Below are positions 2,095-64,000 of a DNA stretch of 64,000 nt, in pieces. The DNA comes from Escherichia phage phiWec187: the sequence record LC739536.1; one strand, given 5' to 3'. A model generated the notes under the pieces. The model made no database searches. It worked only from the letters and a program-made list of their open reading frames with translations, and was not told the origin of the DNA. The first letter of the stretch is position 1. The number at the start of each line of letters is the position of its first letter. The position numbers and the translations under genes were made by a program.

Positions 2095-3581
2095 TGGCAG
2101 ATTATGGTTTAACAGATGCTGGTTTTGTCATTCCAACGTTTGATGATATTTTAAATAATTATATGACAGCATTGAAAAACACTTTCGGTGCAGATACAGC
2201 TACATCTGAAGATACTGTCTTTGGTCAACTGTTTCGTATTATTGCATATACAGATTACACCCTTTGGGAAGGTATGCAAGGTGTTTACAATACCCAAACC
2301 TTAGATGGTGCAGAAGGTATTTATCTTGATGAAATTTTCTCTAAAAGGGGTTTTTATCGTAAAGCTGCTTCTGCTGGTAGTGGTTATGCTTATGTTAAAT
2401 CTAACAATAAGGCAGCTTGGACTTATGAGCTAAGCACAGATGTTTATTTTAATGCCGATAACGATTTGACATATTATGTCAGTGCACCAACAATGTTGAA
2501 TGCTAAGATTGGAGCATATACCATTTCTAAAGCAAACGCAACAGCTTCTGGTGAAACTTCTATTACTTTCTACATTCAAAGTGCTATTGACGGTGGTCTT
2601 AACAGTAAAACACTAAGTCCTAGCAATACAAACTTTATTTTAGATCTCACGAATTTCATTAAAGCTAACGTATCAACAACAGATCGTGCTTTAGTATGGA
2701 ATGATGCTAGTAATGTTTACATGGGTTATAATCCAGAAGATAATGTTAACCCAATAGGTTTAGTAACACCAGTGAAATTTTACGCATCTATTGCAATAGG
2801 TACAAAATGGAGTGAAATTCCAGTTACGTGTTCAGACGTTGGTTATAATCCAGTAGGTACAGAAAGTATCACAGGTATTTCTTCAACGTTTACAGGCTTT
2901 TTAGATACAGGTAACTTCTATCCATTCTCTCCAGGTACAGATGTTGAAACAGATGCAGAATTCCGTTCTCGTTTCAATGATAATATGGATGAAGCTAATG
3001 CTGCTACTCGTGCTGCTATTGTTAAAGCTCTGCTACTGACAGATGGTGTGACAAAGGTTAAGATTTATGATAACCCTACATTACATGATCAGGAACATGC
3101 TCCAGCTATGACATTCCAGACTATTGTGTATGGTGGTACAGCAGAAGAAGTTGCACAGGTTATTTATAATACTAAACCTATTAACACCTTAACCTATGGT
3201 ACAACAGCAATTACTATCGTAACAGAAGATGGCGGTCAAGAAGTAATTCGTTTTTCTCCTGGTGACAATGCTGAATATTCACTTAAACTGATATATCAAA
3301 CTGGCAATGGTAGTGTGTTAAGTACAACAGAAAGAGAAAATATTGTTTCTGCTCTTTCAAACCTACAGGCTTATTTTGAGTTAGGGTCAACAGTAACTAA
3401 CGATCAGATAAAAGGTGTAATTTATTCTGCACTTGCGTTCGGACGCTTGACTTCTCTCCGTGTTTATGTTAAACTTAATACTGAGGATGACAGTAAATAT
3501 AATGAGGGAGATATCACTCCAGCGTACAATGTTGTACCATCCTTTGACCTTGATAATATTTCCTACGAGTACGGAGTCTAA
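2094..3581 (+). CDS. putative baseplate protein (gpJ/gp6-like position)
   Basis: 495-aa ORF directly upstream of the fibre genes, translationally coupled; assigned by position only. Confidence 0.4.
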   Translation: MADYGLTDAGFVIPTFDDILNNYMTALKNTFGADTATSEDTVFGQLFRIIAYTDYTLWEGMQGVYNTQTLDGAEGIYLDEIFSKRGFYRKAASAGSGYAYVKSNNKAAWTYELSTDVYFNADNDLTYYVSAPTMLNAKIGAYTISKANATASGETSITFYIQSAIDGGLNSKTLSPSNTNFILDLTNFIKANVSTTDRALVWNDASNVYMGYNPEDNVNPIGLVTPVKFYASIAIGTKWSEIPVTCSDVGYNPVGTESITGISSTFTGFLDTGNFYPFSPGTDVETDAEFRSRFNDNMDEANAATRAAIVKALLLTDGVTKVKIYDNPTLHDQEHAPAMTFQTIVYGGTAEEVAQVIYNTKPINTLTYGTTAITIVTEDGGQEVIRFSPGDNAEYSLKLIYQTGNGSVLSTTERENIVSALSNLQAYFELGSTVTNDQIKGVIYSALAFGRLTSLRVYVKLNTEDDSKYNEGDITPAYNVVPSFDLDNISYEYGV

Positions 3582-3583
3582 AA

Positions 3584-4213
3584 ATGGCAGTGAGTGTTGA
3601 CCATGTGACAACGTGGGATAGTATCAATGAAGATGTTAAAGACCTACTGATTGAAGATTTTAAATCTTCTCCGAACATTGTCAAACTACTCTATATCATT
3701 TCTAGCGAAAAACAAAAGATAGATCAGGCAATGATCTATCTTGCCAAACACCGCTTGATCTCTACTGCAACTGGTAAGTATTTAGATCTTATTGGTGAAG
3801 AGATGGGGATGGAAAGAAATGGTGCTACAGATGAAGAGTATCGTACAATATTAAAAATCAGGGCTTATCGTGTTGCGTCTTCTGGTACGCGAGATGATAT
3901 CATTGATATGTTCGCTCGTTTTACAGGAACAGAAAAAGAAACGATCAATACATACGTTGGATTAAATAAAACATTCGACGTATTCTTTTATAATTTGTGT
4001 CTACAATCCGATCAGGCAGTAGCACAGTTACTTAACGTTTTCCCGATCCTAAGTAGTTATCGCTTAGGTGCGAAAGCGGGTTCAGCCTTTGGTTTCACTT
4101 CCTATTATGCCACAACTCCACCTCATGGCATAGGTGGTTTAGGTTCTCTTTACACAGAGGCTGAAGGAGATGATACAGGGCGAATGACTATGCTGATAGC
4201 TCAAATAGAATAA
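3584..4213 (+). CDS. putative baseplate/tail protein
   Basis: 209-aa ORF 3 nt after the preceding stop; sits between baseplate-like and fibre genes. Confidence 0.4.
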   Translation: MAVSVDHVTTWDSINEDVKDLLIEDFKSSPNIVKLLYIISSEKQKIDQAMIYLAKHRLISTATGKYLDLIGEEMGMERNGATDEEYRTILKIRAYRVASSGTRDDIIDMFARFTGTEKETINTYVGLNKTFDVFFYNLCLQSDQAVAQLLNVFPILSSYRLGAKAGSAFGFTSYYATTPPHGIGGLGSLYTEAEGDDTGRMTMLIAQIE

Positions 4214-6122: not shown

Positions 6123-8536
6123 TGGCGAATTTTCCAACATATCCTGCTACGACACTAGAACAAGGTGTTGATCTGGTTATATTCTCGTCTAACCAGATGC
6201 ATGATGTTATTAATGGGGATGCTACAGCAACTGTAGAAACCGAAACAGGTTTAATACCTACACTGCGTAAAGCACTTGTTGATAACTTCTTCTTTAAGAG
6301 TCCTGTTGCTTGGTCAGCAGGATCAACTGAAACTGTATTTAACCAGTTACGTTATTTTGAAAACGGTATCTTGAGTGGGTACTATTATGCCCCATCTGCC
6401 ACTACTGCGAACCCTGTACCTATGCAGGGCACACCTGTAGGGGACAGTAACTGGACTCTGTACGCTCTTAAAACTGAACAGTTAGCTTCAGATGTGTATC
6501 CTTGGTATTTTAAAGGTGCTACAGGATATGAAACAGAAATCAGTCCTCCTTATATCTTTGATAATGCTATTGTCACCATTAACGGTGTAATTCAGATTCA
6601 AGGTGAAGCATTTACTATCAAAGATAGTAAAATTATTCTGGCAGAACCATTAGGTTTAGATCCGTCTACTGGTCTACCTAACAAATTGTTTGCTTTTATT
6701 GGTAAAACAACAGCTTCTACTTCTTACGTAGAGAAAAACCTTTTGTCATCTACTACTGGTGCAGCAATGGTTGGTCTTCCATCTGGAGGCAACCTGTTAC
6801 AAGCTCAATACTTTGTAACGCCTGAGCAGTTTGGTGCAATTGGTGATGGAGTTACCGATGATACTCAAGCAATTTTAAAAACTATCACTTTCGCTAACAC
6901 GAATAACATTCAAGTACGTGCAGATAAGAATTATAGATTCACAAGCTCAATTGCTATGTCTGGTATTCGTTGGTATGGTGGTACATTCACTGGTAACGGT
7001 GGAACAATGATTTCTACTGTGTCCTGTTGGATGGAAAACGTTCGCTTTGAAAAATGTTATGTTAAGATGTTAGGTGGTGATTGCCGATTCTATCGTAATA
7101 TCTTCTCCAACGCAACATCTACAGCAGCATTCTTAATGCAAGCAATGACAAGTGAAGGTACGTTGGACTTCAGTTACAACGAAATGTATGGTTGTAAATA
7201 TGCGATCCTGCAACAAGGTACTGGAGAAGTAATGACCTACGGGCGTTACTCTAACAACTATATTCACGATATCAAAGGTGATGCTATTGAACTTAACGTA
7301 GTTCAAAAACACTACACTGAAGGTTTGATTATCGAGAATAACCACATTGCTAACGTAGATGCTTCTGGACAAGGTGCAAACTGGGGTATTGGTATTGGTG
7401 TAGCAGGTAGTGGCCCATATGGTGTTGATGTTCCTGATTCACAATATGTACGTAATTTCAGTATCGTTGGGAATAGGGTTTACAATTGCCGTCAATGTTT
7501 ACACGTTGAAATGGGTAAAAACTTCACAATACGTGATAATGAAGTTTATCCTAACACAGCAGTTTCAACAGGTACAGGTTTAACTACTTGTGGTGTTGCA
7601 TTATACGGATGCCAAGATTTTGAAGTTGATGGTTTAACTGGTTATCTGCTCAATGATCCGTCTGTTTCAACACGTATGGTCTTTATTGACTGGGGTGTTA
7701 ACAGTGGAAGATATGCGGGGCCACCAATTAACTTTACAATTAAGAATTTGGATATTCCAGAATCTTCAATTGAGATTGCAACATCTGGATCAGATGCCTG
7801 GGAAAACTCTACAATTGTTAGTAATATCAATTGTAATATTTTTAAATGGCGTGGGCTACCATCTAGCTCTACCTTTAATAATATTCGTTGCCGTAGTATT
7901 GACTTTATTGGTCAACACGGAAGCGGAGAAGGAAGTGGTGGCGGTTTCTATACTCGCAGCCAATTCACGTATATGAAGTGGGTAGGATGTACAGCACTTA
8001 GCGGAGATGAAACAACAGTTTCTTTTGCTAAAATCTACACTGATCGTTGCGATCAGGTTGGAAATAACTTTGGTGTTCCAACTGCTGTTGATGGTACAGG
8101 TCATCGTGGGCCAGTTTTAACTACTATTTCTGAACAATATTTTACAGCTTATGATGAATTCCCAGGTGGGCGTGAATTCCCTACTGGAACAGTTATTCAT
8201 TGTGCAAGCGGTAAAAAACATGTTGTTACAGTAGGTGGTGCTTTCTTTAGTGACAACGAGAAAATAAAAGCAACTGTTACAGGTCAAACCTATCTACAGT
8301 CTAATGCTTTAAACTGGGCTAGTAATGGCTACGCTAAAGCAGCAGGTACTAAGATTGTTATTCCAGGTGCAGGTGCAAATGGCGGCGATCTTGTGACAAC
8401 TATAGCACGTGCTACATATGTGACAAATAGTTTGTACACAATAGATATTGCAGATCCAATTGTAACACCTACAGCAGAGAATACACAAATTAAAGCTCTG
8501 AATCCTGTTACTTTTGTTACTGTCAATAATGCTTAA
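6122..8536 (+). CDS. tailspike with right-handed parallel beta-helix (putative polysaccharide depolymerase)
   Basis: 804 aa; repeated beta-helix-like turns (NNHIANVDASGQGANWGIGIGVAGSG, VGNRVYNCRQCLHVEMGKNFTIRDNEVY); terminator follows. Confidence 0.7.
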   Translation: MANFPTYPATTLEQGVDLVIFSSNQMHDVINGDATATVETETGLIPTLRKALVDNFFFKSPVAWSAGSTETVFNQLRYFENGILSGYYYAPSATTANPVPMQGTPVGDSNWTLYALKTEQLASDVYPWYFKGATGYETEISPPYIFDNAIVTINGVIQIQGEAFTIKDSKIILAEPLGLDPSTGLPNKLFAFIGKTTASTSYVEKNLLSSTTGAAMVGLPSGGNLLQAQYFVTPEQFGAIGDGVTDDTQAILKTITFANTNNIQVRADKNYRFTSSIAMSGIRWYGGTFTGNGGTMISTVSCWMENVRFEKCYVKMLGGDCRFYRNIFSNATSTAAFLMQAMTSEGTLDFSYNEMYGCKYAILQQGTGEVMTYGRYSNNYIHDIKGDAIELNVVQKHYTEGLIIENNHIANVDASGQGANWGIGIGVAGSGPYGVDVPDSQYVRNFSIVGNRVYNCRQCLHVEMGKNFTIRDNEVYPNTAVSTGTGLTTCGVALYGCQDFEVDGLTGYLLNDPSVSTRMVFIDWGVNSGRYAGPPINFTIKNLDIPESSIEIATSGSDAWENSTIVSNINCNIFKWRGLPSSSTFNNIRCRSIDFIGQHGSGEGSGGGFYTRSQFTYMKWVGCTALSGDETTVSFAKIYTDRCDQVGNNFGVPTAVDGTGHRGPVLTTISEQYFTAYDEFPGGREFPTGTVIHCASGKKHVVTVGGAFFSDNEKIKATVTGQTYLQSNALNWASNGYAKAAGTKIVIPGAGANGGDLVTTIARATYVTNSLYTIDIADPIVTPTAENTQIKALNPVTFVTVNNA

Positions 8537-33624: not shown

Positions 33625-34602
33625 TTAAGCAACAGCCTGGTCTTCTTTTTCAGGGAAGATTAAACTTGCAATAACACCCAGCCCAAGAGTACCTAACACA
33701 ATATACATACTGATCGTCGGATCAATGTGTGCTGGTAGGAAACTCACTTTTGCGTGCAGAGTTTCTGCAAACGGATGATACATCAGTTTTACACCCACAA
33801 ATACCAGGACTACGATAACTGCTTTCTCCAGATGAACCAAATACTTCAGTGCAACACTAAGAACAAAGAACAGAGCACGTAAACCTAAGATAGCACAGAG
33901 CATCGAAGAGAACACCAGCAGAGGTTCTTGTGTCACTGCAATCACTGCTGGAACAGAGTCTACTGCAAAGATTACGTCAACCATTTCCATTACAAACACA
34001 CAAACCAGAGCCGGAGTTGCTACACGAACACCATTTTTGATTGTGAAGAACTTCTCACCATCCATCTGATCAGATACAGGGAACAGCTTACGAACAATGC
34101 GAGTAGCCCAGTGTTTAGAGTAATCAACTTCTGCATCATTATCTCCAGCGAATACCATTTTAGCCGCACAGAAAAGGATGACCGCACCGAAGAAGATATT
34201 AACATACCAGCCCAAACTCAACAAGTAAGTGCCTACTGCTACAAACACACCTCGGAAGACAATCGCACCTGCAATACCCCAAAGTAGAATCTTGTGCTGC
34301 AAGTGTGTGCTTTTAATACCAAAACTTGCGAATACTGCCACAAATACTACTAAGTTATCTACAGAAAGAGATTTCTCCAACACATACCCACTTAAGAACA
34401 AGCTCGCAAAATCAGCACCGTGTTGGAAGTATACAAAACCATAGTAGGCTAATGATACCCCAATCCAGAAAATTGACCAGCCAATTGCAGATTTAAATGA
34501 AATTTCTTTGTTTTCTCTGTGTCCAAAGAAATCAATACAAATCGACAAGACTAAAATACCCACTAAAACAACCACATCAATAATTGGGAAACCCAGTTGC
34601 AT
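33625..34602 (-). CDS. terC: TerC-family integral membrane protein
   Basis: Multiple TM helices plus the two TerC signature blocks LEKSLSVDNLVVFVAVF and VIFAVDSVPAVIAVTQEPLLVFSSMLCAILGLRAL. Confidence 0.8.
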   Translation of the reverse strand: MQLGFPIIDVVVLVGILVLSICIDFFGHRENKEISFKSAIGWSIFWIGVSLAYYGFVYFQHGADFASLFLSGYVLEKSLSVDNLVVFVAVFASFGIKSTHLQHKILLWGIAGAIVFRGVFVAVGTYLLSLGWYVNIFFGAVILFCAAKMVFAGDNDAEVDYSKHWATRIVRKLFPVSDQMDGEKFFTIKNGVRVATPALVCVFVMEMVDVIFAVDSVPAVIAVTQEPLLVFSSMLCAILGLRALFFVLSVALKYLVHLEKAVIVVLVFVGVKLMYHPFAETLHAKVSFLPAHIDPTISMYIVLGTLGLGVIASLIFPEKEDQAVA

Positions 34603-34679
34603 TCTTTTCTCCTCTTTAATGCGGAGGACAATCCTCCGCTCTATGTCTTATACTATAAACTGTTTTTAAAGAAAGTCAA

Positions 34680-57189: not shown

Positions 57190-57405
57190 TATTTTGAAAA
57201 TTTTTATTTTTATAAAAAGGGGTGTGGGTTTCATGTACGGAAATTCACCCTCTGAATAATATATTCAGAGTAAATATTATTTTGTACTCTGTTAATAAAC
57301 TATTTAATTTGTTTGTTGGATTATGATATCTGGTTTTTAAAAGGCATACTATCTCTTAACTACTATTTATAACAGAACAGTAAAATCATTTTTATAAAAA
57401 GGACA

Positions 57406-57610
57406 AAATTATTTAAAGTTTTTACAGATTTTTGGATACAAATTTTGAAAATGAAAAGTTCAAGTTTGGTCAAAATTATTTAAAGTTTTTGTATGTATTT
57501 CTATCCAGATTTTGAAAATGAAAACTTCAATTTTTTAAAAATTCCCCAGTTTATTTAAAGTTTTTTTGCCTTTTTCCGTAGAAAAATCAAAAATGAAAAG
57601 TTCAATTTCG
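57406..57610. repeat. three tandem ~65-75-bp direct repeats
   Basis: Each unit carries tatttaaagttttt then, about 20 nt later, tttgaaaatgaaaagttcaa. Confidence 0.7.
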
Positions 57611-57629
57611 TGTTTTTATAGGTGTGCGT

Positions 57630-57745
57630 ATGATAATCATTCTCATTTGTAAATGAGAATGATTATCATTTAATTATGTAAGTGATAATCATTCTCACTA
57701 AGAGAATGAGAATCATTAGCAAATGAGAATTTTTCTCATTTATAG
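57630..57745. promoter_or_regulatory. cluster of Fur-box-like palindromes
   Basis: Perfect 19-bp inverted repeat atgataatcattctcattt / aaatgagaatgattatcat (57630-57669) containing AATGATAATCATT, an exact 13-nt match to the core of the E. coli Fur box GATAATGATAATCATTATC; two more partial copies to 57745. Confidence 0.5.
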
Positions 57746-58001
57746 AATAACGCGCAGGGGTGGTGTTTGTCTCGCGCTCCCGTGTCCCCTCGCCATACAA
57801 TAAGAATAGCATAACTAACAACAAAAGCAAGCAATTATTTTTATCTTTACATTTCTTTACAAATTTATTTTAGACGAGCTACCGGCGATCAACCTTCCAA
57901 CCAGTGCCCCCTGGTATGTTAGCCCCGCCTTTACGCCGTGGGGTGGCGTTTCCTCTTCTGTATGTAAAACAGTATAAGCCCGATCCCTGGGCTTGTCAAG
58001 A

Positions 58002-58268
58002 TTATTTTTTGTTTTCTTGCCAGGATAGGACACCTAACCAAAAATACATGTCGCCCCGCGCCCCTGGCGGGATCTTGCTTTCCCCGCCGCCACTGCAAGC
58101 CCATAGATAACCATTAGCGAACGGATCAAAGTGATCTATTTCTTCCACCTTATGATCGCCCAGGTTGAGAACGGTTTCAACCTTTAAGCCCGTTGCGCTT
58201 GCTACCTGGTGCGCCGTGCCGCCTTGCCAGCCTAATGAGTGCATGAGGTGTAGAGTAGTATTTGTCAT
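58002..58268 (-). CDS. hypothetical small protein encoded in a GC-rich island
   Basis: 88-aa ORF with its own promoter and 5' hairpin-RBS architecture (gcgcc-ctggtt-ggcgc, then caaagaaaggg...ATG); GC content far above the flanks. Confidence 0.45.
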   Translation of the reverse strand: MTNTTLHLMHSLGWQGGTAHQVASATGLKVETVLNLGDHKVEEIDHFDPFANGYLWACSGGGESKIPPGARGDMYFWLGVLSWQENKK

Positions 58269-58315
58269 GGTATCGCCCTTTCTTTGATGTGCGCCCTGGT
58301 TGGCGCGGTAGAAAG

Positions 58316-58344
58316 ATAATAGCCCTTTCCTTTATAGATAGCAA
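58316..58344 (-). promoter_or_regulatory. sigma70-like promoter for the 58268 gene
   Basis: Minus-strand TTGCTA, 17-nt spacer, TATTAT. Confidence 0.45.
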
Positions 58345-58380
58345 GCAAAAAAAAGAAATGAAAAAAGATTAAAAAAGGGG

Positions 58381-58409
58381 TTGACGTTCCTCACCTGGTA
58401 GCGTATTAT
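58381..58409 (+). promoter_or_regulatory. sigma70-like promoter (divergent partner)
   Basis: TTGACG, 17-nt spacer, TATTAT. Confidence 0.5.
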
Positions 58410-58536
58410 TCATCTTGTCGAGGGGGGCGAGGCACAACGACAATAAACAAAAGGAGGGCGCAATGTAGGACGGGCAAAGGTGAGGATCTCCATAATCCAC
58501 CGTCACAATAACATTACTTATAAAAGGTTGATAACG

Positions 58537-58632
58537 ATGATCAAGAAAGAAAACAGCTTGACGGTTGGAACGATTAACGCTATCATTCTTGCCGTTCCAT
58601 TTTGGATTGTAGTTGCGGTTATTATTTTTTAA
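58537..58632 (+). CDS. small hydrophobic peptide (31 aa)
   Basis: MIKKENSLTVGTINAIILAVPFWIVVAVIIF; below the ORF-track length cutoff; weak RBS. Confidence 0.3.
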   Translation: MIKKENSLTVGTINAIILAVPFWIVVAVIIF

Positions 58633-58640
58633 AAATATTC

Positions 58641-58668
58641 TTGACAACGTTTTTTAATCTGATAAGAT
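58641..58668 (+). promoter_or_regulatory. early promoter
   Basis: TTGACA, 16-nt spacer, TAAGAT; followed by the 58681-58696 hairpin. Confidence 0.6.
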
Positions 58669-58720
58669 GTATCACATAGGGCGGCAATAGTGCCGCTCAT
58701 AACAGAAGAGAGAAATAATC

Positions 58721-58993
58721 ATGGCATCATATAGCGCATCAATGATCGTAATGGGCATCACTGGTAAACCTATGCGCGGTGGCGGATCTTTCGCTAACAT
58801 CAATATTGATGGGCGTTTATCCCTGGATGCAGCGATCACCGTGGCACGGGAAACATTTAAAAAAGAATGCAATTTCAATAAACAAGATTATCTCGGTTTC
58901 GCTATTGAAAAAACCGCGCGCTTTGTGGATTATAAAAGCCCGAAAATGATCGACACTACACTAAAAGCGCAAGATGTAGCGTTTTTGCTTTAA
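58721..58993 (+). CDS. early protein, hypothetical
   Basis: 90-aa ORF with promoter, 5' stem-loop and RBS. Confidence 0.5.
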   Translation: MASYSASMIVMGITGKPMRGGGSFANINIDGRLSLDAAITVARETFKKECNFNKQDYLGFAIEKTARFVDYKSPKMIDTTLKAQDVAFLL

Positions 58994-58996
58994 GGC

Positions 58997-59024
58997 TTGA
59001 CACTGAAAAATAATTTAGTAATAT
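58997..59024 (+). promoter_or_regulatory. early promoter
   Basis: TTGACA, 16-nt spacer, TAATAT; hairpin ggcgggg...cccgcc at 59036-59057. Confidence 0.6.
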
Positions 59025-59079
59025 ATACCACGTAAGGCGGGGAAATGATTTCCCGCCAAATCAAAGAAAGGGTAATGCA

Positions 59080-59442
59080 ATGAGCAAGCAAATCAATACT
59101 ATCATGTTTAATCTGGTATCTTTCCGCGATGACGTGAAAAACCTTTCGCGTGATGCAGTGGATGCACGGATCGAAAGCTATCGCACACAGATCGCAACGT
59201 TACCGCTGAAACGTGATCAACATGCCGCTAATATGATGCTTGATGCTATGATTAAAAAGATGATTCAATGTGATCTTACCCTGGCTTATGAATATGCTGG
59301 CGATCTTTTTGTAACGTATAATAAGCCCGTTCCAGGTATGAGCACCACGGAAGAATTGCATGCCTTAAATCTGCGACAAGATGCATGGGATAACATGCGC
59401 CGTGTTATGGTATGGGTAGAAAGCGGTAAAATTTACGAATAA
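59080..59442 (+). CDS. early protein, hypothetical
   Basis: 120-aa ORF with promoter/hairpin/RBS. Confidence 0.5.
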   Translation: MSKQINTIMFNLVSFRDDVKNLSRDAVDARIESYRTQIATLPLKRDQHAANMMLDAMIKKMIQCDLTLAYEYAGDLFVTYNKPVPGMSTTEELHALNLRQDAWDNMRRVMVWVESGKIYE

Positions 59443-59448
59443 AAACGG

Positions 59449-59476
59449 TTGACATTGCACTAAAACCTGATAAGCT
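59449..59476 (+). promoter_or_regulatory. early promoter
   Basis: TTGACA, 16-nt spacer, TAAGCT; hairpin gcgggaa-ttg-ttcccgc at 59485-59501. Confidence 0.55.
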
Positions 59477-59520
59477 ATCTTAAAGCGGGAATTGTTCCCG
59501 CTTACATAGGATAAAACTTT

Positions 59521-59667
59521 ATGAAACAATATGTAATGAGTATTCACACCAAAAACGGCGCTACTGTTACGACTCCGGCACGGTTTGCACTTGTAAACCG
59601 CTGCAAGAGACTAAAACGAGAGCTAAAAAACAACCGTGCAACGGGCTTTAAACGCTGGGGAGGATAA
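59521..59667 (+). CDS. early small basic protein (48 aa)
   Basis: MKQYVMSIHTKNGATVTTPARFALVNRCKRLKRELKNNRATGFKRWGG; below the ORF-track cutoff. Confidence 0.4.
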   Translation: MKQYVMSIHTKNGATVTTPARFALVNRCKRLKRELKNNRATGFKRWGG

Positions 59668-59669
59668 TC

Positions 59670-59930
59670 TTGTTTTTTCTAAAAGTTTTTGATAATGTGA
59701 TCGCTTTTGAACATGCTACAACGTTCGACCTGGCGAGATACGCTATCAGGTTTAAAGATAATGTTTATCCCCGTGCTGGCGGCGGTTACACTATTTTTAA
59801 TCATCGTAACGCTCAATTAACGGATATAACTAATCCAGGCCCTGGAGTGTATCGCATAGGCTGGCTACCGTCAAAAGACGCGGCAAGCATGTTTAAGGTA
59901 TGTAAACTACTAACAGAAGAGGCGAACTAA
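59670..59930 (+). CDS. early protein, hypothetical (TTG start)
   Basis: 86-aa ORF starting at TTG 8 nt after GGGGAGG, translationally coupled to the preceding small ORF. Confidence 0.4.
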   Translation: MFFLKVFDNVIAFEHATTFDLARYAIRFKDNVYPRAGGGYTIFNHRNAQLTDITNPGPGVYRIGWLPSKDAASMFKVCKLLTEEAN

Positions 59931-59931
59931 C

Positions 59932-60486
59932 ATGGGGCGTGAATATGTGATCCAGTCCTGGGTAAAGCATGATGCTAATGATCCGCGCATAATACCAGAT
60001 GACATGATCGATCACATGGTAGGGTATAGCGGGGAGCAGATAGGAAATCGAGCGGCAAAGAGCAACGGCAACACAAAGGCGCGATCCGTTCGCCCTGGTT
60101 GGCTGGCAAATGGTAACGCTGACATTGCAAGCGCCGCAGATCCAAGCGATGACGCTAAAAATAATCCCTTATACAGCATTGATCCGGCTTTTAAGGTGTT
60201 AGAAGAATATCCCGCTAAATTAGCCGCACTAGATAAGGCATACGAAGAAAAGCGCATGGCATGGACTGTATACAACACCGCTAAAATGGTGCTAGATGCA
60301 AAATTGATTAAAGCCCAGGAGAAGATCAATAAACTTGTTGCAGTAGCGCAAGAGGAAGACCAGGACGACCAGGAGGAAGAGGAAGAAATCATGCCTACCC
60401 TGGAAGAGGAAGAGATCCAGCCATACACGCCGACAGAAGAGGAAAAAATACAAGCCTTAAAAAATTATAAAAATTGTATTGTGTAA
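59932..60486 (+). CDS. early protein with highly acidic C-terminus
   Basis: 184 aa; EEDQDDQEEEEEIMPTLEEEEIQ tail. Confidence 0.45.
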   Translation: MGREYVIQSWVKHDANDPRIIPDDMIDHMVGYSGEQIGNRAAKSNGNTKARSVRPGWLANGNADIASAADPSDDAKNNPLYSIDPAFKVLEEYPAKLAALDKAYEEKRMAWTVYNTAKMVLDAKLIKAQEKINKLVAVAQEEDQDDQEEEEEIMPTLEEEEIQPYTPTEEEKIQALKNYKNCIV

Positions 60487-60489
60487 GGC

Positions 60490-60518
60490 TTGACATATGC
60501 AAACAAGCCCCGTAATAT
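60490..60518 (+). promoter_or_regulatory. early promoter
   Basis: TTGACA, 17-nt spacer, TAATAT. Confidence 0.55.
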
Positions 60519-60567
60519 GTACCACATAGAGCGGGGCAACCCCCTCAAAGGTGAAATAAAAAATCAC

Positions 60568-60595
60568 TTGACAACTGAAATCAGTAAGCTATAAT
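60568..60595 (+). promoter_or_regulatory. early promoter with consensus elements
   Basis: TTGACA, 16-nt spacer, TATAAT (both hexamers perfect). Confidence 0.65.
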
Positions 60596-60632
60596 GCTTA
60601 TATAAATTAAAGCGTTACTAAGGAATAAAATC

Positions 60633-60998
60633 ATGGCTAAAAATATCAATGTTTCTGCTTATGCTACCCTGGCTAACACTGCTAAAATTGAACTATCCAG
60701 CATTGAAGCGGTACATATTAGCGCCCGTCGCTGGTTTCAAAAGTCTTATGGTAATACTTATTTCTCTTTGATGGTTGACGTTGAGATCGGCGGTAAACTG
60801 ATTGAAGTCGTTAACGTTCCGTTTCAATATGGTTATGGTGATCATTTTGATACCGTCGCCCTGGAAGAGTTTAGCAAGGTTATCAACCTGGAAGGTAAAG
60901 ACTTTTCAAATTATGCTTACCTTTCCCGTTTTTGCCGTGATAATGGGATCGCTGTATACAGTCATGCAAGCGATGTTAAACGTAAAAAAGATTTATAA
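60633..60998 (+). CDS. early protein, hypothetical
   Basis: 121-aa ORF downstream of tandem promoters. Confidence 0.5.
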   Translation: MAKNINVSAYATLANTAKIELSSIEAVHISARRWFQKSYGNTYFSLMVDVEIGGKLIEVVNVPFQYGYGDHFDTVALEEFSKVINLEGKDFSNYAYLSRFCRDNGIAVYSHASDVKRKKDL

Positions 60999-61004
60999 AA
61001 AGCA

Positions 61005-61032
61005 TTGACAGCACGAATAAAAAGCATATAAT
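61005..61032 (+). promoter_or_regulatory. early promoter
   Basis: TTGACA, 16-nt spacer, TATAAT; hairpin gcgggaa-tag-ttcccgc at 61046-61061. Confidence 0.65.
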
Positions 61033-61086
61033 ACTTATATCGAGAGCGGGAATAGTTCCCGCCTCACTGAAAAAGAGATTAACATC

Positions 61087-61326
61087 ATGGCTAAATCTAA
61101 AATGTTCTTAGGTCACAAAAACAAAACTCATTGGAATGTAAGCCTTTGGATCAACAACGATGAAGGTTTTTATAATCTTGCGCGTGAATTTATCGCAGCT
61201 AACACCAATAAGAATGACGCAGCGCGTGATATGATGTTATTTCTTGAAAGTATGGATCAAGATAAAACGCCAGACGGTTACAAGTTCAGTAAAACTGCAA
61301 TCCGTGCCGCTATGGTAGGAATGTAA
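61087..61326 (+). CDS. early protein, hypothetical
   Basis: 79-aa ORF with promoter/hairpin/RBS. Confidence 0.5.
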   Translation: MAKSKMFLGHKNKTHWNVSLWINNDEGFYNLAREFIAANTNKNDAARDMMLFLESMDQDKTPDGYKFSKTAIRAAMVGM

Positions 61327-61335
61327 TAAAAGCAG

Positions 61336-61363
61336 TTGACAACGTTTTTTAATCTGGTATAGT
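61336..61363 (+). promoter_or_regulatory. early promoter, near-duplicate of the one at 58641
   Basis: TTGACA, 16-nt spacer, TATAGT; first ~24 bp (ttgacaacgttttttaatctg) identical to 58641-58661; hairpin ggcgggaaa-tgg-tttcccgcc at 61375-61395. Confidence 0.6.
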
Positions 61364-61417
61364 TTATCACATAGGGCGGGAAATGGTTTCCCGCCAAATC
61401 AAAGAAAGGTTATCATT

Positions 61418-61645
61418 ATGGCTATCGTTATTGTTCGCGTATCCGGTACGGTTGGAAGCTCCCAGGTAGTAGCAGTTATCACCGAGAAGAAAGGGGATGA
61501 TCTTCACTCTTCCTTGAATAGCTGGGCGGTCGCTAACTTCGGGCAATGGTCGAGCGTTGAGTACATCGAATCCTACCAGGTGCCAACGATTAGCCTAACC
61601 GATCTGAATGTTGATCGCTTGTTGTGCCTGGATGGATTAAACTAA
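61418..61645 (+). CDS. early protein, hypothetical
   Basis: 75-aa ORF. Confidence 0.5.
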   Translation: MAIVIVRVSGTVGSSQVVAVITEKKGDDLHSSLNSWAVANFGQWSSVEYIESYQVPTISLTDLNVDRLLCLDGLN

Positions 61646-61653
61646 AAATAATA

Positions 61654-61681
61654 TTGACAAGATAACTAAAATCAGTAAAAT
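61654..61681 (+). promoter_or_regulatory. early promoter
   Basis: TTGACA, 16-nt spacer, TAAAAT; hairpin gggcggca-atag-tgccgccc at 61692-61712. Confidence 0.6.
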
Positions 61682-61732
61682 GTAATGCATAGGGCGGCAA
61701 TAGTGCCGCCCCTAGTGAGAGAGATTATCAAC

Positions 61733-61948
61733 ATGGCTAATATCCGCACCTTGTTAAAAAATGCAAAGCAAGTTTTATTTTCAGATGACGAATATTTTAA
61801 TAAAGATATTACAGGCGTGAAAAATTTAAAAGACGTGAAGGATGTTATCGGTATCCGTGGATCTTTACGTAAAGGTGACATATACGGTAACAAGGTGCAG
61901 TATAAACTGTCAAAAGATTATGATTTTACTTTGACAATTATTTCATAA
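61733..61948 (+). CDS. early protein, hypothetical
   Basis: Start at the internal ATG after the 5' hairpin; the listed longer ORF would begin inside the promoter/hairpin. Confidence 0.5.
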   Translation: MANIRTLLKNAKQVLFSDDEYFNKDITGVKNLKDVKDVIGIRGSLRKGDIYGNKVQYKLSKDYDFTLTIIS

Positions 61949-62038
61949 AACTACTTGCAAACCTGGTAAAATAAAGTAAACTATATTCATTAAGGCGGTG
62001 GAATAGCCCACCGCCTAACAAAGAGAAGAGGAAACATC

Positions 62039-62209
62039 ATGATCACTTTCGCTACCCGTGAAGCCGCTCGCAACGTTGCACGTAAAGTTAATGCCGCCAA
62101 CCTGGGCGCTACGCTTAAAGCCCCGGTAAAAGATGAATCAGGAAAATGGATCTTCCCTGGTCTGCGTCACGCTGATAAGCTGGGAACATTAACGTTAAAA
62201 AATAAATAA
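62039..62209 (+). CDS. early small protein (56 aa)
   Basis: MITFATREAARNVARKVNAANLGATLKAPVKDESGKWIFPGLRHADKLGTLTLKNK; preceded by hairpin ggcggtgg-aatagc-ccaccgcc (61994-62015) and RBS. Confidence 0.45.
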   Translation: MITFATREAARNVARKVNAANLGATLKAPVKDESGKWIFPGLRHADKLGTLTLKNK

Positions 62210-62216
62210 TATCCGC

Positions 62217-62245
62217 TTGACAGTAGCATGATTTATAAGTAAAGT
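62217..62245 (+). promoter_or_regulatory. early promoter
   Basis: TTGACA, 17-nt spacer, TAAAGT; hairpin ggcgggaaa-tgg-tttcccgcc at 62255-62275. Confidence 0.55.
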
Positions 62246-62295
62246 AACAACAACGGCGGGAAATGGTTTCCCGCCATCAATAAAGAGATAAGATT

Positions 62296-62655
62296 ATGAA
62301 ATCAGTAAAAGCAATTAAAACTTACATTGTGTCGGCTATTTCTTTTGAAGGTACTACAACAGAAAAAGAAAAGATCACCGAACTGATGCGCCGTTTTAAG
62401 TCTGAATACTGGTATACCGATAATCAAAAACGTTACAATCATAACATGACCAAGGCGATAGCCTCATGGTTACAAGGTTTACCGTCAGAAATCAATATTG
62501 CTTTTGATTATAACGAGATCGATCACTTGTTAATCGAATGGAAGTATATAAAAGAAACAAGCAAAGAAACAACCGTTACCCGTGAGCGGGAAAATTATTG
62601 GTTATATATTGCAAGCATGATCGTAACTTTGGCAAAATATCATAAAGTAGCGTAA
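62296..62655 (+). CDS. early protein, hypothetical
   Basis: 119-aa ORF. Confidence 0.5.
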   Translation: MKSVKAIKTYIVSAISFEGTTTEKEKITELMRRFKSEYWYTDNQKRYNHNMTKAIASWLQGLPSEINIAFDYNEIDHLLIEWKYIKETSKETTVTRERENYWLYIASMIVTLAKYHKVA

Positions 62656-62669
62656 TTAAGAGGAAAAAC

Positions 62670-62807
62670 ATGAACGCATCACAGCAGATCGAAAAATTCA
62701 ACCGCAACAAAGCGCGTAAAGATTGGAACGAAGAGATCACCAAGAAAGGCGACAAGCGGAACAAAACAAAGAGAGATCGCAGCACAAAAAGATACTGGAA
62801 CGAATAA
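62670..62807 (+). CDS. early small basic protein (45 aa)
   Basis: MNASQQIEKFNRNKARKDWNEEITKKGDKRNKTKRDRSTKRYWNE; RBS AAGAGGAAAAAC; terminator follows. Confidence 0.4.
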   Translation: MNASQQIEKFNRNKARKDWNEEITKKGDKRNKTKRDRSTKRYWNE

Positions 62808-62812
62808 CAAGA

Positions 62813-62840
62813 AAGGGCGCAATAAGCGCCCTTTTAGCTT
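62813..62840 (+). terminator. rho-independent terminator
   Basis: aagggcgc-aata-agcgccctt followed by ttagctt. Confidence 0.6.
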
Positions 62841-62925
62841 ATATAGAGGCTTGTTACCCATAGGCAATGGTAACGCCAGGATAAGCCTATAAACCACGTT
62901 AGACAGCTTTACAGGAGCTTTAAAA

Positions 62926-63108
62926 ATGAAATTAGACGAAATAAGCAAGGCACTAGCCCAGGGGCAAAGGTTATGCGCCCGATATCGTGATCAATATGGC
63001 TTCATAACTAGCGGCGTGATCCTGGGGATTGAAGGCAATAAGATTTTTATTGACACGTTGAAAAACGTTGTATATAGTGACAATATAATCTCAATAAAAC
63101 ATATATGA
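62926..63108 (+). CDS. hypothetical small protein
   Basis: 60-aa ORF; its 3' end contains a promoter-like TTGACA-N17-TATAGT. Confidence 0.3.
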   Translation: MKLDEISKALAQGQRLCARYRDQYGFITSGVILGIEGNKIFIDTLKNVVYSDNIISIKHI

Positions 63109-63116
63109 GGCAAGAA

Positions 63117-63518
63117 ATGAAAAAATTATTGATCGCTGGTTTACTCTCTTTTGGCATGGTTGGAACATCTAGCGCGGCGATATCCTCCACAGTAGCAGAA
63201 TTAAGCGCCGTTGATGCAATGGAAAACGTCATGCTTATTAATAATGCGATCCCCGATGAAATCATGGAGGATTTACACATGATCGCTTATGGTGCTGTTA
63301 CACAACTAACGGCAAAAATAGATAAATCTATTGTTAATGGCTTAAATGAAGATGTACCATGTGAAATTATTACCAGTGTGCTGACTACTCAAAATTTTAC
63401 GCCGTGGCTAAAAAGTATTCAAAAGGTGCATAGTGCAGCCGCAGATCGTAGCAATGAAAAACTAGTGTCAGCACTTGCAACGTATACCCTAGCAAAATGC
63501 ACCGAGATAAAAGATTGA
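63117..63518 (+). CDS. secreted/periplasmic hypothetical protein
   Basis: Start at MKKLLIAGLLSFGMVGTSSA (signal peptide). Confidence 0.45.
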   Translation: MKKLLIAGLLSFGMVGTSSAAISSTVAELSAVDAMENVMLINNAIPDEIMEDLHMIAYGAVTQLTAKIDKSIVNGLNEDVPCEIITSVLTTQNFTPWLKSIQKVHSAAADRSNEKLVSALATYTLAKCTEIKD

Positions 63519-63565
63519 CAACATAGAAAGCACGTTATAAGATACACACAACAAAGGAGAACTAC

Positions 63566-63868
63566 ATGAACGGCATAGCTAAAACGTTTTTTCTTTTTTC
63601 TGGTGTAAATGATCCATCAATAAAAGTCGATAGTGTAAAAGAAAACAATACTATCACCGCTAAATTGTTTCAAGATGAAACAAATAACGTGCTAATCATT
63701 AATCTTAAAGAAATAACGAAAGGTTATTATACTATTGCTTACCATGCAATTTATCATGCTGGTACTAGTGAGGAAGTGCAAACAAGCAACAACGAAAGCG
63801 CGGCGCTACCTGGTGATCTGGTGCTGGGCGTTATCAGTTTAATTGTCAATGATTTTTTTAAGGAGTAA
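63566..63868 (+). CDS. early protein, hypothetical
   Basis: 100-aa ORF after TTGACA-N15-TATAAG and RBS AAAGGAGA. Confidence 0.45.
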   Translation: MNGIAKTFFLFSGVNDPSIKVDSVKENNTITAKLFQDETNNVLIINLKEITKGYYTIAYHAIYHAGTSEEVQTSNNESAALPGDLVLGVISLIVNDFFKE

Positions 63869-64000
63869 AACCATGCCCTATTTACATTTATTTTTCGGTA
63901 TCTTATTGACAGGATCTTTTTTCTTCTGTATGCTTGTTTCTATTGTAAACCACGTTTTAAGACATTAAGGAAACAGCATGAAAATTATTCCCGTACAATA

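Follow-up and report, generated by a model that had tools for sequence, protein, structure and literature searches.

The DNA analyzed here, referred to as the window, is a stretch of 64,000 nt from Escherichia phage phiWec187 (LC739536.1), identified as a phi92-like myovirus (Justusliebigvirus, Stephanstirmvirinae). Between positions 58641 and 62300 lies an array of small putative early genes, and the spaces between them are occupied by a repeated unit in which a predicted σ70 promoter is followed by a GC-rich hairpin. This region is 96-97.6% identical to Escherichia phage phi92 (FR775895.2, 138306-141966), and the same level of identity was found with about 50 other Justusliebigvirus genomes. 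Its genes are the counterparts of phi92 gp226-gp236, all annotated as hypothetical, and all 10 ORFs (open reading frames) of the array matched PHROG families of unknown function. The phi92 record carries only coding sequence and ribosome-binding site annotations over the array.

Nine units were identified on the plus strand between 58641 and 62300, and two further units lie on the minus strand (beginning at 58344 and 34679). Each is about 90 bp long, and the parts follow in a constant order: an AT-rich stretch with the stop codon of the previous gene, a -35 hexamer, a spacer, a -10 hexamer, the hairpin, a leader and the ATG. The previous stop codon ends 3-9 nt before the -35 hexamer, which is TTGACA in seven of the nine plus-strand units, and a spacer of 16-17 nt separates it from a -10 of the form TAnnnT. 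The plus-strand promoters match the consensus at 9-12 of 12 positions, with the exception of unit 61955 (TTGCAA/TAAACT; 8-9 of 12). The word CAYRTAG stands before the stem in many units, with four exact matches against 0.06 expected. The hairpins of the window units have 6-12 pairs and loops of 3-6 nt; their folding energies range from -12.4 to -18.7 kcal/mol, with z-scores of -2.4 to -4.9 relative to dinucleotide shuffles. A purine-rich, U-poor leader follows, and the ATG is found 17-24 nt past the end of the stem.

The initial annotation had placed a promoter and a hairpin before each of at least eight small genes. The elements it quoted are all where it had put them, and eight of the nine plus-strand units have a gene behind them. 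Its distance of 10-15 nt from the -10 to the hairpin needs a small correction: the hairpins do follow the -10, but the core stems start 6-13 nt past it, slightly nearer. The leader word CAAAGAAAGG, reported as recurring and as shared with the divergent minus-strand gene, occurs in exactly three copies (59062, 61400 and, on the minus strand, 58277-58286) against 0.2 expected. When strong promoter-like sites were collected from the whole 64 kb, 10 of 40 had a structure of -12 kcal/mol or lower within 40 nt, compared with a background of 1.7% of 40-nt windows. Likewise, perfect GC hairpins were found 5-14 nt past a promoter-like -10 in nine of 34 cases, where random placement predicts 1.25. A chance origin of the promoter-hairpin arrangement is excluded.

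The first plus-strand unit (58641-58723) has its -35 at 58641-58646 (TTGACA), a TG-extended -10 at 58663-58668 (TAAGAT), a hairpin at 58679-58698 (GGGCGGCA-ATAG-TGCCGCTC, with one G.U pair) and the ATG of the gp226 homolog at 58721. It is followed at 58997-59082 by the unit of the gp227 homolog, with the -35 at 58997, the -10 at 59019-59024 (TAATAT), a hairpin at 59036-59057 that has one bulge/G.U, CAAAGAAAGG at 59062-59071 and the ATG at 59080. The third unit (59449-59523) serves the gp228 homolog; its -35 is at 59449, its -10 at 59471-59476 (TAAGCT), its hairpin at 59483-59503 (AAGCGGGAA-TTG-TTCCCGCTT) and its ATG at 59521. The fourth (60490-60553) is an orphan with no ORF behind it and consists of a -35 at 60490, a -10 at 60513-60518 (TAATAT) and a weaker hairpin at 60529-60546. 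Close behind it, at 60568-60635, is a consensus promoter (TTGACA-16-TATAAT) without a hairpin, whose leader is joined at ATGGCTA (60633-60639) to the gp231 homolog. The fifth unit (61005-61089) has its -35 at 61005, its -10 at 61027-61032 (TATAAT), a hairpin at 61042-61065 with the core GCGGGAA-TAG-TTCCCGC at 61046-61062, and the ATG of the gp232 homolog at 61087.

The four remaining plus-strand units belong to the homologs of gp233 to gp236. That of gp233 (61336-61420) has its -35 at 61336, its -10 at 61358-61363 (TATAGT), its hairpin at 61375-61395 (GGCGGGAAA-TGG-TTTCCCGCC), CAAAGAAAGG at 61400-61409 and the ATG at 61418. For gp234 (61654-61735) the -35 is at 61654, the -10 at 61676-61681 (TAAAAT), the hairpin at 61692-61711 (GGGCGGCA-ATAG-TGCCGCCC) and the ATG at 61733. 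For gp235 (61955-62041) the corresponding positions are 61955 (TTGCAA), 61977-61982 (TAAACT), 61993-62016 (AGGCGGTGG-AATAGC-CCACCGCCT) and 62039. The last, that of gp236 (62217-62298), repeats the hairpin of the gp233 unit (GGCGGGAAA-TGG-TTTCCCGCC, 62255-62275) behind a -35 at 62217 and a -10 at 62240-62245 (TAAAGT), with the ATG at 62296. Of the two minus-strand units, the divergent one (58266-58344) is the first in its direction and precedes the gp224 homolog: its -35 is at 58344-58339 (TTGCTA), its -10 at 58321-58316 (TATTAT), its hairpin at 58306-58291 (GCGCC-AACCAG-GGCGC), CAAAGAAAGG at 58286-58277 and its ATG at 58268. The other (34601-34679) is isolated, outside the array, and corresponds to position 114046 of phi92, upstream of gp182; it has a -35 at 34679 (TTGACT), a -10 at 34657-34652 (TATAGT), a hairpin at 34639-34621 (GCGGAGGA-TTG-TCCTCCGC) and an ATG at 34603. 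One promoter-hairpin per small gene, as first described, is thus the general pattern, with departures in both directions: the orphan at 60490, the consensus promoters at 60568, 63050 and 63515, which lack a hairpin, and the unit at 34679, far outside the range first given.

At 58381 a further unit has a degenerate hairpin in both the window and phi92, and an intact GGGCGGCA/TGCCGCTC hairpin in phage phAPEC8 (locus position 343). The ribosome sites of the array genes are weak and purine-rich (GAGAG, AAGG; 'GGA/GAG/AGG' in the phi92 annotation) over 58700-62300 of the window and 137.7-147.2 kb of phi92, and AGGAG is annotated for most other phi92 genes. The leaders between hairpin and array gene are poor in U, and about five of the array ORFs in the window begin with ATGGCT.

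Since the hairpin always lies downstream of the -10, it would belong to the cassette's own transcript. If transcription starts at a purine 7-8 nt past the -10, as promoter geometry predicts, the stem would begin 1-5 nt, usually 3-4 nt, from the 5' end of the message, in agreement with the initial proposal that the hairpins sit at the extreme 5' ends of the transcripts. Across lineages the stems mostly start 9-12 nt past the -10, with core offsets that peak at 10-12, and in the related loci the median distance from stem end to ATG is 21 nt. Literature searches for Justusliebigvirus, Phapecoctavirus and Vequintavirus returned neither transcription-start or transcriptome data nor a description of these hairpins.

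When the array was compared with those of phi92, Paula, KMB37, inny, EmilieFrey, ESCO32 and AV123, seven of seven indels had their junctions inside units. Sequence overlaps of 7-22 nt occur at these junctions, whose positions range from the -35 to the ATG; this fits general homologous recombination between the approximately 90-bp repeats better than a site-specific cut. Several junctions produce chimeric yet intact units. Phage AV123 lacks the gp226 homolog, and the single unit that remains there combines the promoter of unit 58641 with a 58997-type hairpin and leader. One extra cassette is present at unit 61005 in ESCO32 and likewise in inny; relative to these phages, the window unit is made up of the first unit's promoter and the second unit's hairpin. 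Unit 61005 is a crossover point for extra cassette DNA of EmilieFrey as well, and in that phage the -35 of unit 61955 is where the extra ORF joins. Both the window and phi92 lack a 180-nt ORF, together with its downstream unit, that is found in relatives; in this case the crossover is the 7-nt ATGGCTA present at two start regions (60633-60639), and it places the next ORF, the gp231 homolog, behind the promoter and leader from upstream. Comparison with relatives shows the units to be the apparent crossover points at which small genes are gained and lost, and recombination between units is the sole role that this genome comparison demonstrates. The gp225 gene of phi92 (about 300 bp) is also missing from the window (58607-58631 against phi92 locus 1165-1491), with the right junction 10 nt ahead of the -35 hexamer at 58641.

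Exchange may extend further. Single array genes have DNA that is 75-85% identical in rV5-like, Avunavirus, jumbo (PBECO4, SP27) and podovirus (PGT2) genomes. In the jumbo coliphage PBECO4, a long conserved promoter, ACTTGCAAACTAnGTTTAAAnGCGTATAATGTTTTnCAT, is followed by a GC hairpin such as GGTGGGGAATAGTTCCCCAC (locus about 2230-2290, 3780-3840 and 6200-6260). The inserted cassette of ESCO32 bears a promoter of this PBECO4 type, located in the unit that comes after the extra cassette (locus 3260-3356), which suggests that cassettes have been exchanged between unrelated phage families.

The closest known elements are the promoter-early stem-loops (PeSLs) of the T4-like phages RB49/phi1, PST/T4 and nt-1/KVP40 (Arbiol et al. 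2010, PMC2839356; Comeau et al. 2014, PMC4122927), which flank ORFans in hyperplastic regions, mediate modular shuffling and form excised minicircles. The units of the window resemble PeSLs in having a near-consensus σ70 promoter, an AT-rich region upstream of it in which the stop codon of the preceding gene is found, a stem-loop with G residues first and C residues second, and a conserved leader with a Shine-Dalgarno sequence and ATG. Like PeSLs, they recur in each gap between the small genes, of unknown function, that make up the array, and in both cases close relatives differ by indels in these gaps, with crossover points at any place from the AT-rich region to the ATG. The PeSL criterion of an AT-rich flank agrees with the 60-95% AT in the 20 nt 5' to the units, against 62% for the window. 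All the sequence-level PeSL features tested (promoter, AT-rich upstream region, GC stem-loop, Shine-Dalgarno sequence and ATG among small genes, and indels within units) were found.

There are also distinct differences. The phages with window-type units are Stephanstirmvirinae and Vequintavirinae and not Straboviridae, and no T-rich sequence follows the stems in the window. The stem-loop of RB49 lies inside the spacer between the -35 and -10 (TTGACAGGGGATCggtGATCCCCTATAAT; read directly in the RB49 array) and that of PST and nt-1 lies upstream of the promoter, whereas the window-type stem-loop is 9-12 nt past the -10 and would form the 5' end of the mRNA of its own cassette. Five position classes of stem-loop have been described for the PeSLs of phi1, of which the one downstream of the -10 is the rarest (PMC2839356, PMC4122927). 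On these features the units are relatives of the PeSLs, that is, a known class in a new arrangement and a new lineage. In the literature searched, PeSLs are discussed for T4-like phages only and mentioned elsewhere just in passing; papers on rV5 and Certrevirus report σ70-like promoters and do not mention these hairpins. The units also share with lambdoid morons and other promoter-gene-terminator cassettes the property of being autonomous expression modules for small genes that move between phages. Morons differ in having no shared repeated linker at their flanks, while in the window the repeated unit itself is the recombination substrate.

The hairpins do not look like intrinsic terminators, as had been noted from their lack of U-runs. 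In every window unit the 8 nt after the stem contain 0-3 T, short of the threshold of at least five T in eight, and 15 related loci gave 45 unique hairpins, of which 42 have at most two. A terminator scan of the window listed no array hairpin on the plus strand. The true terminators of this genome are of a different kind, with A-run and T-run flanks, for example AAAGGGCGC-AATAA-GCGCCCTTT at 62812. In the record of phage Paula several array hairpins are labelled as terminators, on the opposite (minus) strand, where the tails contain about 3-4 T in eight and are interrupted, which gives these labels weak backing.

The published role of PeSLs nevertheless raises the alternative that the hairpins mainly attenuate or insulate transcription arriving from the upstream cassette and so limit read-through, their presence in the cassette's own leader being incidental. 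There is one hairpin per intergenic space and no other terminator between 58.6 and 62.3 kb, the annotators of Paula evidently saw terminators here, albeit on the other strand, and the RB49 PeSL stem-loop cut expression of a downstream lacZ gene as strongly as rrnB T1 (PMC2839356). Apart from the missing U-tract, the geometry is less favorable: the T4-like stem-loops are upstream of or inside the promoter, and the window hairpins are downstream of it, so that a real terminator would halt the cassette's own transcripts. Moreover, a hairpin is present in the first leftward unit (58344), where there is no co-directional gene upstream to be terminated. Taken together, we consider attenuation unlikely to be the main function.

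Three other types of element were rejected. An RNase III site would require about 20 bp or more of double-stranded RNA, and the stems of 5-12 bp are too short. A boxB/nut-type antitermination hairpin does not fit because the loops are too variable, being 3-7 nt long and inverted between relatives, and it has no Rfam match. A hairpin promoter for a virion polymerase, as in N4, is contradicted by the full σ70 promoter that precedes the hairpin and by the location of the hairpin downstream of the predicted start. An Rfam search of 57500-64000 with E values up to 1 returned sub-threshold chance matches only. One of these, to the hilD 3' untranslated region (61679-61835, minus strand, antisense to the gp234 homolog), reached 39.8 bits (E = 9e-6) against a gathering score of 74 and is most likely compositional.

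The same units were found in Phapecoctavirus (phAPEC8), in the unclassified Stephanstirmvirinae Citrobacter phage Tr1 and in Vequintavirinae (rV5, W70, UPEC06), with different stem sequences: GGCGCA/TGCGCC, CGGGGGAA/TTCCCCCG, GGGGAGAA/TTCTCCCC and GCCGCA/TGCGGC. Orthologous genes can bear different intact hairpins, such as GGCGGGAAA/TTTCCCGCC in the window and GGGGAGAA/TTCTCCCC in W70. Covariation was counted by script on arms anchored at the loop, because a MAFFT alignment of 11 window units brought the promoters into register but failed to do so for the arms of the hairpins. Over seven positions of the stem, 98.3% of the cells pair, compared with 68.5% (maximum 76%) when the 3' arms were shuffled among units, and G-C, C-G and A-T pairs interchange at identical stem positions. 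As judged from these comparisons, it is the structure of the hairpin and not its sequence that is conserved. Conservation in relatives was one of the tests on which the initial annotation had staked the element beforehand, and the hairpins of the related genera do keep their position while their stems covary.

This pattern bears on the suggestion that the hairpin is a site at which a phage or host protein controls the early genes jointly, for instance by antitermination, by shut-off repression or by guiding a nuclease. Such a site would account for a common element at a fixed position on all early leaders, and the loose preference for AAT(A/G)G in the loop and the conserved CAYRTAG before many stems also speak for it. 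However, the stems vary freely, a number of early promoters have no such hairpin, and no match to it was found in Rfam. The loops, too, differ in length (3-7 nt), and close relatives have them in inverted form with the unit still intact. Recognition by a sequence-specific regulator, one of the two functions first proposed, has therefore become less likely, and we regard a protein site in general as improbable.

In two cases the inversion of the loop is exact and the stems are unchanged: unit 59449 (59483-59503) has TAG in Paula and CTA in KMB37, and unit 61654 (61692-61711) has ATAG in the window and CTAT in KMB37. Inversions between near-identical genomes imply intrastrand pairing and template switching in the DNA, and they also argue against recognition of a specific loop. 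They lend some substance to a reading with no RNA function at all, in which the units are repeated promoter modules of the DNA that hitch-hike on cassette recombination, their palindromes being maintained through template-switch correction; the spread of junctions over the whole unit is what general homologous recombination would give. A variant of this reading is that a G-rich initial sequence aids promoter escape. In 52 of 57 enteric units and in all 18 actinophage units (see below), the 5' arm is rich in G and the 3' arm in C, so that the first 13 or so transcribed nucleotides are purine-rich. Work on the T5 N25 promoter has reportedly linked purine-rich initial sequences to promoter escape. 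The RB49 PeSL stems, on the other hand, are likewise G-first even though they are located inside the promoter, outside the initial transcribed region. More generally, hairpins of the same position and size with unrelated stems occur in distant lineages, including actinophages, and this is hard to explain without selection on the fold. An explanation at the level of DNA or promoter escape thus seems to us quite doubtful as the whole account.

Stable hairpins within a few nucleotides of the 5' end, with the ribosome site left free and structure conserved over sequence, are also features of the E. coli ompA and papA leaders and the T4 gene 32 leader, which the window leaders resemble if their predicted starts are correct. 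A stabilizer of this kind is expected to have its stem within about 0-4 nt of the mapped 5' end, and promoter geometry predicts 1-5 unpaired nt for the window units. The gene 32 hairpin is cited as an mRNA stabilizer in a passage of PMC8948821. These precedents are single, experimentally mapped leaders, whereas the element considered here recurs as a module on about 10-16 genes in each genome and is known from sequence. According to Emory, Bouvet and Belasco (1992), a protective stem-loop is said to have to sit within a few nucleotides of the 5' end; the literature on this point appears in the reference list of PMC3997798.

We therefore lean, with modest confidence, towards a composite interpretation in which the units are PeSL-type boundaries of early cassettes, the DNA repeats shuffle the cassettes, and the transcribed hairpin is most likely a 5'-terminal stabilizer. 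Host σ70 RNA polymerase would start 7-8 nt past the -10, and the first 25 or so nucleotides of each early mRNA would form a GC stem-loop that begins 1-5 nt from the 5' end, ahead of the U-poor, purine-rich leader and its weak ribosome site. The stem-loop would shield these short, mostly monocistronic messages from decay that depends on the 5' end, through RppH and RNase E, as in the ompA, papA and gene 32 leaders. On read-through transcripts the hairpin, lying 3' of the upstream cistron, may insulate or protect that cistron. At the DNA level, as the comparison with relatives shows, the units provide homology patches of about 90 bp for inserting, deleting and swapping small genes with their expression kept. 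The stabilizer role is argued from the position of the hairpin, the missing U-tract, conservation of structure alone, the hairpin on the first-in-line leftward unit and the precedents just named; by this analogy a function in mRNA stability is plausible and positionally consistent. The alternatives set out above are not mutually exclusive with it or with one another.

Several observations weigh against this interpretation. The 5'-terminal position of the hairpin is predicted from promoter geometry only, and attenuation must be reckoned with because the RB49 stem-loop acted like a strong terminator. The three strong promoters inside the same array that have no hairpin show that it is not obligatory. 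Template switching in DNA can keep palindromes perfect without selection at the RNA level. Evidence for the sense strand from mismatches is slight: non-Watson-Crick juxtapositions comprise eight G:T and two C:A, of which G:T is tolerated in sense RNA, and folding gave 16 G.U pairs in the sense and six in the antisense orientation, a difference among non-independent paralogs that is not significant once these are collapsed; a stricter count on 80 unique hairpins had almost no scorable events. Finally, the location of the indel junctions within units is partly expected, since nearly all intergenic DNA of the array is unit DNA, and for that reason the informative point is the formation of chimeric intact units and not the intergenic location.

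The distribution of the design was surveyed by scanning IMG/VR with the pattern TTGACA-N16-17-TAnnnT-N9-13-GGCGGGAA, in which GGCGGGAA is forced and the complementary arm, repetition and spacing are not. At least 120 stretches with at least 130 matches were found; among the matches listed, 72 reach a folding energy of -10 kcal/mol or lower within 42 nt, and the sources include, besides phi92- and rV5-like contigs, two actinophages. Mycobacteriophage Thonko (61850-69471) has seven units in 3.6 kb, with TTGACA-17-TAnnnT and GGCGGG-N5-CCCGCC 11 nt past the -10 and about 15 nt before the ATG. Gordonia phage Pupper (about 130.6-134.7 kb) has at least five units of the same layout. We found no description of this layout for actinophages in the literature searched. 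Its recurrence points to a design used repeatedly by phages that depend on the host polymerase early, and the presence of the same layout in actinophages suggests a general rule. A bolder extension is that a GC hairpin about 4 nt past the early start is a convergent general device of virulent phages dependent on the host polymerase (phi92- and rV5-like myoviruses, jumbo coliphages and mycobacterial and Gordonia phages), which would mark or shield early mRNAs, for instance from 5'-end-dependent decay or phage-induced destruction of host mRNA, and link mobile cassettes; we offer this as speculation and think it rather unlikely.

If the hairpins are 5' stabilizers, they would account for the persistence of dozens of very small and weakly translated early messages for long enough to act, and the unit would be a compact, portable promoter-plus-leader part for expression design. 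Regardless of any RNA role, the units explain the shuffling of early accessory genes, the usual seat of anti-defence and host-takeover functions, within and between phage families, and in phage genomes their boundaries could therefore serve as markers for defining mobile early-gene cassettes and following their movement.

To the left of the divergent early promoters, the stretch 57190-58000 is non-coding and contains three direct repeats of about 70 nt (features at 57388-57608 and 57629-57742). It also has a cluster of inverted repeats of GAGAATGATTATCAT-like words, one of them a perfect palindrome of 19 bp (57630-57669). The words are similar to the E. coli Fur box: positions 57702-57720 match GATAATGATAATCATTATC with three mismatches, against 0.02 such matches expected, and the stretch may be a host-regulator site or an origin-like region.

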